Shown piece after piece: positions 46,409 through 64,000 of a stretch of DNA of 64,000 bases. The stretch is from a virus, in the IMG/VR virus record IMGVR_UViG_3300029422_000001, positions 46,744 through 110,743 of that record, one strand, 5' to 3'. Below the pieces are notes generated by a model. The model ran no database searches. It was not told the DNA's origin and saw nothing but the letters and a program-made list of their open reading frames with translations. How positions within the stretch are numbered: the stretch's first letter is position 1; each line of letters opens with the position of its first letter. The position numbers were made by a program, and so were the translations under genes.

Positions 46409-46792
46409 TTATTCTACATCAAAAAGCTGATCTAACACCAATAATTCGGCATCCATATCTTCATCTTTCGGGAAACGAACTTTTATGTTTCCGAACTTAG
46501 ATGTCTTAAACAAGATGTAGGGGTTCATATCTTCGGCGGTCACCGGCTTATATTCCTTAACTTCCGACATCTTGAGATACCAGTCGCCTATTTTTACAAA
46601 TCCGGAGAAGATAGAACACAGATGCGCTTTTACGGACTGTATCTCCTTTTTATCTTTGAAAGGTATAATTTCGTCCTTTCCCCTTATCCTGATTGACAAG
46701 AAAGGACGAATGTTATCTGTTTCATTTTGAAATTTGAAGCCTGTTATGGCTTGCTTGGGGATTCTTCTTCCCATTAATATAAAATAGCTCAT
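46409..46792 (-). CDS. Hypothetical protein (127 aa)
   Basis: ORF, minus-strand array. Confidence 0.5.
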   Translation of the reverse strand: MSYFILMGRRIPKQAITGFKFQNETDNIRPFLSIRIRGKDEIIPFKDKKEIQSVKAHLCSIFSGFVKIGDWYLKMSEVKEYKPVTAEDMNPYILFKTSKFGNIKVRFPKDEDMDAELLVLDQLFDVE

Positions 46793-60634: not shown

Positions 60635-60655
60635 AACTTTTTTGTTTTATTGTTT

Positions 60656-60764
60656 GTGAGATGCCCAGAATCGAACCAGGACCGGCACATACGCACCGGC
60701 ACGCCGCGTCATCCCCTCTATGATGCAGAAATTGGCATGCCTATCCTCACGAACCGACATGCCA
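60656..60764 (-). ncRNA. tRNA-like structured element 1 (T-arm GGTTCGATTC + acceptor-like 3' end; no canonical cloverleaf found) with adjacent 7-bp hairpin tggcatg/catgcca
   Basis: Minus-strand read ...cctggTTCGATTctgggcatctcac. A 5' partner gggatg for the acceptor was found. D and anticodon arms could not be folded by hand. Confidence 0.3.
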
Positions 60765-60809
60765 AAACCCAAAACTTAATTTGATGAATAAAATAGATTA
60801 ACAAAAATA

Positions 60810-61132: not shown

Positions 61133-61480
61133 TTATTTTTGTGGTATTATTTGACTGTACGCAGACTTTTCCATGTACACAATACTATGCTCCTGTCCAA
61201 GTATTTTCTTTGCCGCCTCTTTCTTTATCGCGCAATATCTCCCTGTACGATACGGATTCTTTTGATCTGATCCATCCTCGACTTCGATAATAAAACAACC
61301 TCCGTCATCTATTATCTTTTTGCAATTGTCACATATTTCTCCCGTGCATATATGATGCGGCGCCTGCCCTTTGATGTTATTCCCTAATAAAGCAATCCCC
61401 ATCTCTTCACCGCATACTATGCATAGTTCTATGGATGGATTCAACCCATGCTCTGGATGCAATACAATACCGTCTTTCAT
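61133..61480 (-). CDS. Cys-containing hypothetical protein (115 aa)
   Basis: CIVCG...HHICTGEICDNC. Confidence 0.5.
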   Translation of the reverse strand: MKDGIVLHPEHGLNPSIELCIVCGEEMGIALLGNNIKGQAPHHICTGEICDNCKKIIDDGGCFIIEVEDGSDQKNPYRTGRYCAIKKEAAKKILGQEHSIVYMEKSAYSQIIPQK

Positions 61481-61881
61481 TTTCTATCCTCCTTTATTAA
61501 TTCTATTATAAACTTTTTATCTTGTTCCCACAATGGCAGCCCTTCTTTTACTGTGTATGCCACTGTTTCCCTCTCTCCTATTAATCGCACGGCAATCTCT
61601 CTTGCTTTCAAGTCATCCTCCTCATGCGATTTGTTTATTAAATCATAGGCACATGATTCCACCTTTTGCCTTTCGATTATTATCGAACCCATTAACTCGC
61701 TTATATGCGATCCTAAAAACGATAAGACATTAATAGCTTTCCCAATATCATTTGAAATAGCACTTGCTAAATACATCTTATCCATATACTCCGGCAAAGC
61801 CTCGTATGCCGTTTCTATGTTTTTATACTGATTTTCGTTTACCTCCCTTTTAATCAGTTCTTCAAATTCTTCTTTTAACAT
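61477..61881 (-). CDS. Hypothetical protein, about 134 aa from MLKEEFEELIK. The track ORF 61477..62028 carries a non-protein-like N-terminal extension that translates the tRNA-like element.
   Basis: The first 49 codons of the track ORF (MRKISSLIFLCFRQNAPICEDRSICFMGFMVQ...) coincide with the structured-RNA region. An internal ATG sits at 61881. Confidence 0.5.
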   Translation of the reverse strand: MLKEEFEELIKREVNENQYKNIETAYEALPEYMDKMYLASAISNDIGKAINVLSFLGSHISELMGSIIIERQKVESCAYDLINKSHEEDDLKAREIAVRLIGERETVAYTVKEGLPLWEQDKKFIIELIKEDRK

Positions 61882-61902
61882 GTTCTTCCCTATTTTAATG
61901 TT

Positions 61903-61990
61903 GTGTGAGATCGCCGGAATCGAACCGACTTGCTGCACCATGAATCCCATAAAGCAAATGCTCCGATCTTCGCAGATGGGAGCATTCTGT
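61903..61990 (-). ncRNA. tRNA-like structured element 2 (T-arm gtcggTTCGATTccggc + acceptor gatctca/tgggatt minihelix)
   Basis: Read directly. An acceptor-T-arm minihelix can be drawn (7 bp with 2 G-U). No canonical D or anticodon arm. Confidence 0.3.
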
Positions 61991-62574
61991 CTAAAGCATA
62001 AGAAAATTAATGAAGAAATTTTTCTCACTTACGCCATAGCATCTAAAATAGCTATCAGCACTATTTCTATGACAAACATAATAGAAAATATCTTAAATGC
62101 CTTTTTCATATCGCTATCTCCTCCTTTTTATTTTTTTTTTAGTTCCACAATAAACTGTTCCGGCTCTGCTCCGACCTACGTTCCACCTACAACCGCAGGC
62201 CTTAGCCCAAGGCGCCGCCTACTCCCCCTCTATGGCAGCCTGTTCGTACCTACAAAGCCAATCCCCATCTACACAACTATCACTACGCGATAATAAACAT
62301 TTATCCTTATAACAATCATCCTTATGACAATCATAAAAAAATACACCTATCACAACTGTAATCCTTAACGTCTACACAGCTAACTACCTTAGCATATACT
62401 ATTCCATCACTGCCTTCTATTCCTTTTACCCCGAAAATAGAACCTTCTACCTCCTTACTCAAATCTAAGTCAGGCGCAAAGTCATATACGTTCATACCAT
62501 CCATATTTTAATTGTTAAACATCCCGCTTAAAAAAAAATACTCACATAATGCAGTCCTCAACCCTTAATCTGTT

Positions 62575-62983
62575 GGAAGGAACCTATATAATGCTGTTTT
62601 AAACCCTTATCATATTGAATTTTGTGGAAATGATCTACAGAACACTGTTTTAAAACGCTTATCTATTGAATTTTGTTGGTAGAAACTACAAAATGCTGTT
62701 TAAAACGCTGTAAGTCTTAATTTTGTGGGAAAATCCTACATTATGCTGTTTTAAAGCTCTGATCTATTGAATTTTGTGGGAAGAAACTACAAAATGCCGT
62801 TTAAAACGCTGTAGGTCTTAATTTTGTGGGAAGAAACTACAAAATGCTGTTTAAAACGCTGTAGGTCTTAATTTTGTGGGAAAATCCTACATTATGCTGT
62901 TTTAAAGCTCTGATCTATTGAATTTTGCTGGTAGAAACTACAAAATGCTGTTTAAAACGCTGTAAGTCTTAATTTTGTGGGAA
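62575..62983. repeat. Tandem direct-repeat array, 8 units of about 50-52 bp in two alternating variants (A: gaaactacaaaatgctgtttaaaacgctgtaRgtcttaattttgtgggaa; B: aatcctacattatgctgttttaaagctctgatctattgaattttgtgggaa). The first two units are degenerate.
   Basis: Units were segmented by hand. The conserved core is ctaca..atgctgttt(t)aaa...attttgtgggaa. A units contain TAATTTTG. Confidence 0.85.
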
Positions 62984-63190
62984 GAGAGTGCCCACCCTCT
63001 CCCCCTCTCCCCCTCTCCAACTCCCGCTAATCCTCCGGCTTTCCGCATAGAACCCACGCCCTACCGCCTCACTACCGGCATACGGAGAGCGCTACAAGCT
63101 TATACTCTGGCATGAAGTATGGGGTGTTTGGAGATAATATCATTCCATAGAGAGAATAGAGAGTCTTCAGCCCACGCCCTACCGTCTGCT
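62984..63190. repeat. CT-rich tracts (ccaccctctccccctctccccctctccaactcccgc) plus two copies of the motif cccacgccctaccg (about 63050 and about 63170)
   Basis: Strong strand compositional asymmetry (pyrimidine-rich on +) read directly. The motif duplication was read directly. Confidence 0.5.
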
Positions 63191-63364
63191 CCTCCTATCA
63201 AAATAGATATTTAAACCTATAATCAAAGCCAATAAAGAAAAGCAAAAGACCATTACAATATTATACTGATCCGGTCCGTACTCCAACATAGAACGAATAC
63301 CAACCGACAGAAAATACAAGTCAGCTACTAATAAAAACCACCACATAAAATAAAAAAAATACAA
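63179..63364 (-). CDS. Small 2-TM membrane protein (61 aa)
   Basis: Two hydrophobic helices. The ORF lies in a compositionally biased region and is uncertain. Confidence 0.35.
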   Translation of the reverse strand: MYFFYFMWWFLLVADLYFLSVGIRSMLEYGPDQYNIVMVFCFSLLALIIGLNIYFDRRSRR

Positions 63365-63730
63365 TAAGTGTGTCCGAAAATACGGGTATTATAAAACCTA
63401 ACTAATTGATAGTCAAGCATACATCATTTTTGAGAAAAATACAATAAGCTTAATTTTCAATCCATAGAGACGAAAAAGGCGGCATCCGACACCCTATTTT
63501 GGGTCAGAAAACCGCCCAAAGTTTCGTTTTAGACCAATTTTAACGACATTATATAGACAAAATACCGGCATTATATCCAAACAGCCTTATTTTTGTTTCG
63601 ATTTGAACCAATATACGCATTCCTACCTTGTTTGTCGTCGTGTTCACTCTCAGAATATCTTACCCGTAAATAGAAAGAGTAGGATACAAAAATAGGGCTG
63701 CTCCGATATTCGGAACAACCCTACTCCTGT

Positions 63731-63988
63731 TTAAATACTGTTTATGTTTTCCTTCACGTATGTTCGTGATGTATGGACTTTGCGTTTGCATTTGTCCTTT
63801 CCCGTATCGGCATGATACGCTTCTTTAAGATCACGATACAACATAAATTCACGATACGCTCTTTTCCGCTTTTCTTTAGCTTCTTTCCTGGACAGACCGC
63901 GGACGTCTACCATATAAGATTTAAATTTCCTTTCCATGTTATTATATTGTTTATAATTTAGAGGTTGCTCCGGAATCGAACCGGACAC
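63731..63988 (-). CDS. Small basic protein (85 aa). Its 5' end overlaps the tRNA-like 3' segment, so the true start is probably internal.
   Basis: K/R-rich ORF (REAKEKRKRAYREF). Confidence 0.4.
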   Translation of the reverse strand: MSGSIPEQPLNYKQYNNMERKFKSYMVDVRGLSRKEAKEKRKRAYREFMLYRDLKEAYHADTGKDKCKRKVHTSRTYVKENINSI

Positions 63989-64000
63989 GCATTCCTATCC
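63961..64000 (-). tRNA. 3' portion of a tRNA(-like) gene truncated by the window edge (T-arm tccgg-TTCGATT-ccgga, acceptor gcaacct)
   Basis: Perfect 5-bp T-stem and canonical TTCGAtt loop on the minus strand. The 5' half lies beyond nt 64000. Confidence 0.4.

Follow-up and report, generated by a model that had tools for sequence, protein, structure and literature searches.

Direct-repeat control arrays are a known kind of element in phage genomes, and where direct repeats stand in tandem between phage genes, they are in most cases the iterons of replication origins, as in lambda, P1, P4, SPP1 and the lactococcal phages. Other described systems also use repeated or clustered sites: in the sopC site of the F plasmid, SopB binds 12 tandem repeats of 43 bp, the sites recognised by terminases frequently come as phased repeats (lambda cosB, SPP1 pacL/pacR), and mycobacteriophage L5 has asymmetric repressor sites, the stoperators, that block elongation. 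Here, an array of eight direct repeats is described in a stretch of 64,000 nucleotides (the window) that covers positions 46,744 to 110,743 of the IMG/VR virus record IMGVR_UViG_3300029422_000001; unless stated otherwise, positions are those of the window. The source genome is that of an epsilon crAss-like phage of about 151 kb, and the region shares 93.5% identity with the end of the GenBank record OR575929, the human gut phage csAssE-Sib (151,256 bp; called crAssE-Sib in its paper). The 51-bp unit, the marked variation in copy number and the site beside a mapped genome end, in a gut lineage that is abundant and uncultured, are unusual. The array is probably a set of phased, one-orientation binding sites at which a sequence-specific protein acts on DNA, in a control region beside the genome end. 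Its use as an iteron-type replication origin or copy-control site is proposed only tentatively.

Tandem Repeats Finder (TRF) called head-to-tail repeats at 62564-62985 with a period of 50, 8.4 copies and a score of 406, along with superimposed periods of 101 and 151 over the array. The eight-unit array of about 50 bp described in an earlier note on this DNA, made by reading the letters alone, is thus present and far above chance. Each unit is made of a block 1 (CTAcAnnATgCTGTTTtAAA), a variable spacer of about 14 nt, and a block 2 (T[T/G]AATTTTGt[t/g]GGAA). There are two unit variants, distinguished by their terminal box: TAATTTTG in the T variant (62718, 62819, 62869, 62970) and GAATTTTG in the G variant (62617, 62668, 62769, 62920). 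Both of these had been noted before as alternating variants; they are real, but run G G T G T T G T along the array, with no strict alternation. The region 62820-62970 is a copy, at 95% identity, of the three-unit block 62669-62819. A decayed unit at the left edge of the array has a counterpart in relatives.

All units have a single orientation, and their spacing of 50-52 bp corresponds to about five helical turns. The sequence TAATTTTGTGGGAA, allowing two or fewer mismatches, has 7 matches against 1.27 expected, six of them inside the array, and a 24-mer core of the array has 4 matches against 0 expected. Blocks 1 and 2 are found only at the array and nowhere else in the window or in the 151-kb relative genome. 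No ORF (open reading frame) accounts for the array, so the earlier statement that the region is unexplained by ORFs applies to the array itself, though not to its flank, which holds a conserved minus-strand ORF of 55 amino acids. The organisation had also been called iteron-like, and that description fits – the direct repeats are phased, unique to one site, and built of conserved blocks around a variable spacer.

The array is conserved among relatives. A search of IMG/VR with a 20-nt degenerate core gathered 63 stretches, nearly all of which were the 51-bp array, with matches commonly 51 bp apart. Conservation of each column was computed over 117 units (61 distinct), excluding the columns fixed by the search pattern. 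Most of the 117 units were 51 bp long (81), with 28 of 52 bp and 8 of 50 bp. Among the 61 distinct units the columns AAA, C, TG, T, AAT, TTG, GG and A were 95-100% conserved, while six neighbouring spacer columns carried at least four alternative hexamers in the units from relatives. This pattern of conserved and variable columns speaks for a DNA site that is open to multiplication and under selection at particular positions, and against a purely neutral satellite.

In every relative fetched, the array was at the identical locus, with the same left and right flanks wherever the flanks were assembled. Between 1 and 9 copies were assembled, most commonly 3, in genomes that were about 90-96% identical in the flanks; the eight units here are near the upper end of the range, and csAssE-Sib has only three at the same place. 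Units were homogenised inside each genome, and at least two were retained in nearly every genome examined. A sub-unit of 21-23 bp, about two helical turns, was amplified independently in several lineages, and these amplified sub-units mostly include block 2 (AATTTTGTnGG).

The place of the array in the genome depends on whether the map is drawn as a circle or from the published end. In the annotation of csAssE-Sib, leftward genes run from 110.9 kb across the record end to 17.4 kb, and rightward structural genes from 17.4 to 110.8 kb. The start of that record was set by its authors with PhageTerm (p = 1.5e-22; PMC11054128). The record ends in ...gttcact and starts with ctcagaatatc, and its start maps to position 63649 of the window. 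The PhageTerm end is taken here as a single published observation: the paper is silent on the type of end, and no public contig was found to start at the equivalent position. The same paper, the only one on this phage group, makes no mention of the repeats, of an origin or of the region. In the linear genome, the array is 0.7-1.1 kb from one end, and given the start at 63649 it precedes a leftward block of about 40 kb that contains early and replication genes, with small uncharacterised ORFs first and replication genes later. The earlier placement of the array at the head of the leftward genes is therefore right relative to the published genome end. On the circular map it is not, since leftward genes continue for about 17 kb upstream and the array is about 18 kb inside the leftward block, counted from the strand switch. 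The terminase genes are about 20 kb away from the array.

If the array is a set of protein-binding sites, it would act as DNA, as neither a gene nor a structured RNA. Asymmetric sites in the same orientation would be presented on one face of the helix, where a sequence-specific protein could bind and assemble a multi-protein complex; the likeliest contact would be block 2 (AATTTTGTnGGAA), possibly together with block 1 (CTGTTTTAAA). Such a site might serve as an iteron-type origin or copy-control element for a phage without its own DNA polymerase, and leftward transcription through the adjoining purine-rich tract could help to open or prime the DNA. Origin function is ranked first among the candidate functions because of the base rate for phage repeats, the uniqueness of the site, its phasing, and dependence on host polymerases. 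The replication set encoded by epsilon crAss-like phages is minimal and includes no DNA polymerase (PMC7886860). Like the iteron origins of lambda (ori), P1 (oriR/incA), R6K and RK2, the array is in one orientation, helically phased, confined to a single site, non-coding and near a promoter (here a predicted one), and in some lineages the 21-23-bp sub-repeats have an iteron-like spacing.

A number of observations weigh against this interpretation. Iterons have units of 17-22 bp, and the units of 50-52 bp here are more than twice the classical length. No unwinding element was found next to the array: the adjacent 60-bp stretches never reach the least stable 5%, and by nearest-neighbour calculation the array itself, at -71 kcal/mol per 60 bp, is less stable than the window mean of -74.7 (SD 5.3) by under one standard deviation (SD). 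DnaA boxes (TTWTNCACA) have 4 matches in 64 kb against 8.1 expected, none of them within 3 kb of the array. Scans with Pfam and PHROGs, which covered ten proteins of neighbouring genes and another ten annotated as DNA-binding or ATPase in a genome where many small ORFs are uncharacterised, found no Rep, DnaA, O-like, initiator or Par domains, and no helix-turn-helix domains were found in the neighbouring proteins. The replication genes are 22-26 kb distant. A range of 1-9 copies among such closely related genomes is unusual for an essential origin, and the binding protein is a putative one.

GC skew, which the earlier note had proposed as a check on the origin, does not favour one here. The cumulative skew of csAssE-Sib reaches its minimum where the strands switch at 17.4 kb, a point about 18 kb away from the array, and its maximum at 110 kb. 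At the array and terminus the skew changes only in magnitude, from -0.33 to about -0.17, and the rightward block has no step matching the one at the array. Skew in this genome merely tracks the orientation of genes. What had been proposed as an "origin or regulatory hub" thus has the architecture and the setting of a control region, with a hairpin (63683-63712), a promoter (63416-63388) and a mapped start (63649) nearby, but the unwinding element, DnaA box and initiator gene of an origin are not nearby.

Table 1. Positions of the array and of the features in the adjoining control region
Feature	Position in window	Strand	Basis or remark
Tandem array, eight 50-51-bp direct repeats	62564..62985	no strand	TRF, unit register, column conservation
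Array unit starts	62584, 62635, 62686, 62736, 62787, 62837, 62887, 62938		
Decayed leftmost unit (CTCACATAATGCAGTCC...TTAATCTGTTGGAAGGAAC), in the gap between the array and the next gene start	~62541..62583	no strand	read off sequence
Right array junction (GAGAGTGCCCACC), then 24-nt pure-pyrimidine mirror repeat at 62995-63018	62986..63018	+	
First motif copy, CCCACGCCCTACCG(CCT)	63053..63069	+	
Second motif copy, CCCACGCCCTACCG(TCT)	63171..63187	+	
ORF of 55 amino acids (MWWFLLVADLYFLSVGI...DRRSRR), two predicted membrane-spanning segments, between promoter and array	63179..63346	-	
Leftward sigma-70-like promoter, TTGACT-17-TATAAT	63388..63416	-	
Terminator-like hairpin, then T run	63476..63495	-	minus strand only
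PhageTerm end/start equivalent	63648..63649	no strand	record ends and PMC11054128; 664 bp right of array
14-bp hairpin + TTTTT, ends the upstream leftward gene 63731-63937	63683..63712	-	conserved in relatives
First leftward gene after the array, 57 amino acids here	62331..62504	-	

Several other explanations involve transcription. It is possible, if doubtful, that the array is a gate for early leftward transcription, either as one-orientation operator or roadblock sites for a phage regulator (the Epsilonunovirus repressor, for example) that would halt read-through from the promoter at 63416 into the early genes, or as stacked promoters for an injected virion RNA polymerase. On one side of the array are that leftward promoter and its small ORF and on the other the first early-type genes, no intrinsic terminator was found between the promoter and the array, the PhageTerm start is close by, all sites share one orientation, and tolerance of different copy numbers suits a regulatory array. 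Among the genes of Epsilonunoviruses are those for a repressor, for anti-repressors and for a homologue of the virion RNA polymerase (PMC11054128), and in the Crassvirales early and middle genes are transcribed by the virion polymerase and late genes by the host polymerase (PMC10136315). The distribution of TAnnTTTG boxes, which precede plus-strand late genes and few leftward genes, fits such a division in this phage. The stoperators of L5 are comparable in being asymmetric, in one orientation and between a promoter and genes, but they are 13-bp sites scattered genome-wide rather than 51-bp units clustered at one locus. The motif of the array is missing from every other intergenic region, where repressor operators and polymerase promoters normally recur, and no regulator has been linked to the array. 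In the crAss-like phage phi14:2, where the long intergenic regions g004-g006 are highly transcribed and are likewise gene-poor stretches among early genes, conserved about as well as their neighbours, there is no comparable tandem array and no common early-promoter motif was obtained. The more specific proposal, that the array, at the end of the genome that enters first, serves the injected virion RNA polymerase as an early-promoter stack or entry platform, is decidedly unlikely. The podovirus early promoters (T7 A1-A3 for the host RNA polymerase, N4 P1-P3 for the virion RNA polymerase) resemble the array in being within about 1 kb of a mapped end and directly ahead of small early-type genes, and the phage group also injects a virion RNA polymerase; they differ in not being tandem copies of one unit, and the only host-type box of the array points outward. 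The hairpin promoters of N4 have stems of 5-7 bp and loops of 3 nt, whereas the junction hairpins here have 9-10 imperfect pairs and loops of 5-7 nt. Singly, these are weak (-1.5 to -8 kcal/mol) and barely above shuffled sequence (p 0.04-0.56), with the commonest variants the weakest. Alternatively, each unit could be a rightward promoter for the Bacteroidota primary sigma factor (-33/-7 type), in which case it would yield a non-coding RNA rich in pyrimidines that is antisense to the 55-amino-acid ORF and heads towards the genome end. This too is unlikely, and the stacked promoters suggested earlier from the box TAATTTTG fare poorly. Four of the 8 units here, and 54% of the distinct units across the family, have a box that fits TAnnTTTG, with an invariant CTG about 21 nt upstream at the place of the -33 element and an invariant A 6 nt downstream, and the intergenic regions of phi14:2 give rise to abundant long non-coding RNAs. 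The same box is found 12-70 nt upstream of seven plus-strand late genes in the window (rightward structural genes; 5228, 7731, 9307, 10980, 13527, 13973 and 20871, +). TAnnTTTG is not enriched overall, with 43 and 27 sites against 39 and 31 expected. In the array, the box is directed away from every gene in the vicinity and runs antisense to the conserved 55-amino-acid ORF; no conserved plus-strand ORF or terminator follows the array, both local terminators being on the minus strand only. Conservation is also at odds with the consensus: the critical T positions are variable (T35 54%, T39 87%), the free "nn" positions are nearly invariant (98%, 97-100%), CTTG replaces TTTG in about 12% of units, and there is only CTG, not TTTG, at -33 (19-21 nt upstream). 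The 50-bp spacing is smaller than the footprint of RNA polymerase, and there is no conserved RNA helix downstream, where an 8-bp GCGCTCTC/GAGAGCGC stem is lost in one-third of genomes.

The remaining explanations concern the DNA itself or its RNA copy. The array may be a minisatellite, in which one 51-bp module is functional and slippage during replication, or recombination, has added further copies that are neutral. The spread of assembled copies among near-identical flanks, the homogenisation within genomes, the duplicated 151-bp block and the 21-23-bp sub-repeats are all what such a process would leave, and relatives have a second, unrelated variable repeat about 2.7 kb away. Still, this is an improbable account of the whole, as two or more units are kept in nearly every genome, the conserved and variable columns are upheld across units and genomes, and the independently amplified sub-repeats mostly include block 2. 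The second repeat, at 2066-2176 of csAssE-Sib, is to the right of the array, outside the window and directly after a terminator hairpin; its units are 22-31 bp (minus strand ..ATGTTTATGTGATGGGAGAGATATGAAA..). It has no similarity to the 51-bp array, which rules out that the two are inverted copies of one motif. About 12 of 80 public contigs terminate inside the 51-bp array and about 21 of 80 inside the second repeat, so that both evidently break short-read assemblies. A packaging or concatemer-junction signal, with binding sites for the small terminase or a processing signal for the nearby genome end, is very unlikely. The site is unique in the genome and in the same gene-poor stretch as the crAssE-Sib PhageTerm start, and repetition and phasing are features it shares with terminase recognition sites. 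The distance of 660-1080 bp from the cut is large for a recognition site, however, the terminase genes are far off, the published end is of unstated type and matched by no contig start, and a variable copy number would be unusual for pac or cos sites. Least probable of all, and by any measure a remote prospect, is a plasmid-type partition centromere or an element acting as RNA (repeated hairpins, or a decoy of CRISPR repeats). The array resembles F sopC in its tandem layout, in unit size (about 45-50 bp), in tolerance of copy number and in being a putative DNA-level binding array, and plasmid-like persistence has been proposed for crAss-like phages (PMC10983915; PMC11054128). Unlike sopC, it comes with no detected gene for a partition ATPase or centromere-binding protein – no ParA, ParB or ParM domains were found in the 20 proteins scanned – and it has no strong inverted repeat within the unit. 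Unit junctions can form an imperfect inverted repeat (ATTTTGTnGG-N5-7-CCnACAnAAT), which is weak and not conserved. RNA of the plus-strand array folds better than shuffled sequence (z = -2.96), a value inflated by the repetition of one unit eight times, and it folds better than the minus strand (z = -0.74; 38 of 43 junctions) because of G.U pairs in the G/T-rich strand.

Other candidates were tried and rejected. A known RNA family or conserved RNA structure was rejected on the weak hairpins, the stem lost downstream and the lack of a match in Rfam, where nothing reached the gathering score and searches at a permissive E-value gave only noise-level hits. For a CRISPR array or decoy, the units abut without spacers, and the score against a Bacteroidota type II-C repeat equalled the shuffle mean; among 185,579 species genomes scanned, no spaced array of the core turned up. 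A prophage or host copy was likewise dismissed, with only chance single matches and 1-3 apparently mis-binned phage fragments in the scan of bacterial genomes.

The sequence to the right of the array is also unusual in composition. The pyrimidine tract at the right junction is the longest pyrimidine run in the window, contains an 8-bp repeat in three copies called by TRF, and forms a GC-rich island whose local stability exceeds the window mean by more than 3 SD. On the minus strand it has a G-quadruplex motif, the only one in the window. The length of the tract differs among relatives. Beyond it, the 14-nt sequence CCCACGCCCTACCG occurs exactly twice, at 63053 and 63171, against 0 expected, and both the CT-rich tract and the duplicated motif that had been pointed out beforehand are borne out. 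The second copy, overlapping the stop codon of the 55-amino-acid ORF, is kept in almost every relative. The form of the first copy is found in about one-third of relatives, the remainder having CCTGCGCTCTCGGCC at 63053; given this restricted distribution, the first copy looks like the result of gene conversion from the second. The interval of about 190 nt between the 55-amino-acid ORF and the array holds both CCCACGCCCTACCG copies and the tract, the tract being purine-rich on the minus strand.

Further features lie to the right (Table 1). The hairpin that ends the upstream gene includes two G.U pairs that are present on the minus strand only. TATAAT of the leftward promoter is kept in all relatives but one, and in relatives the -35 element is TTGATT. 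The 55-amino-acid ORF is intact in 33 of 34 relatives, with mostly conservative substitutions, and a coding sequence is annotated at its position in the crAssE-Sib record. The stretch that would otherwise be called non-coding has a mean pairwise identity of about 0.90-0.97 in most 50-bp intervals, on a par with the flanking genes. The next leftward start codon is at 62504, 59 nt beyond the array. The gene that begins there encodes 86-92 amino acids in relatives and has 513 homologues, only close ones among the matches listed, with one cluster at 90% identity of 3819 members. In the window this gene (62219-62504, minus) is split into ORFs of 57 and 44 amino acids by a 15-bp tandem duplication at 62303-62334 and a one-base change in an A run, which is either a genuine frameshift or an assembly error.

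Some further observations were made around the genome end. A 27-nt inverted repeat (63573-63599 and 63683-63709, 81% complementary) brackets the PhageTerm-equivalent position 63649, and the sequence immediately to the left of it, 63617-63640, exists as two alleles among relatives that differ by a 14-nt insertion or deletion. Of the eleven TGAT(N)ATCA palindromes in csAssE-Sib, four (1813, 1924, 1951 and 151028) fall in a stretch of about 3 kb that surrounds the genome start. One overlaps the -35 element of the leftward promoter; in the window (63398-63412) it is mutated to TTGACTATCAA. These palindromes are a possible candidate for the operator of a dimeric regulator. The stretch at 1.6-2.0 kb in csAssE-Sib is AT-rich and laden with repeats. 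In presumed Epsilonduovirus contigs, an NrnA-like phosphodiesterase (35-37% identical) is found with a polynucleotide kinase at the far end of the replication block, where the pair adjoins a convergent junction with a structural gene of 2180 amino acids and not the genome end, which indicates that the two presumed genera differ in module order.

The tRNA-like elements that had been reported near the array are not tRNAs. ARAGORN found 0 tRNAs in the window, and neither it nor Rfam called a tRNA, transfer-messenger RNA (tmRNA) or Y RNA; there are only T-arm-like GGTTCGATTC motifs. Three elements end in a tRNA-like T-arm and an acceptor-like 3' strand (..GGTTCGATTCcgg..CTCAC/CCTCT), at 60640-60800 (-), 61900-62070 (-) and 63945-64000 (-, cut by the end of the window). 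They sit 20-30 nt upstream of start codons, and for two of them a TAnnTTTG box (60809 and 62080) precedes the start codon by 175-200 nt. They could be decayed tRNAs, processing signals or small RNAs. csAssE-Sib encodes a Ro60-related protein, and the bacterial partners of Ro60, the Y RNAs, mimic tRNA. A gene of 134 amino acids at 61477-61881 (minus; phrog_15742, function not known) is present in the window and in crAssE-Sib and missing from most relatives; column identity across it is about 0.15, and the insertion or deletion adjoins one of the T-arm elements.

Epsilon crAss-like phages abound in the gut of humans and have never been cultured, and their origin, early promoter and packaging signal are not known. 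As a conserved cis element that occurs at one site only and adjoins the sole mapped genome end, the array is a concrete target for experiments. If its units were promoters for the virion polymerase, they would be the first recognisable promoter element for a crAss-like virion polymerase, and copy number would tune early-gene firing and perhaps the entry of the genome into the cell. Together, the array and the second repeat are the break points for roughly 40% of the public contigs of the phage group, and calls of genome completeness are affected as a result. The number of repeats could also serve as a strain marker.

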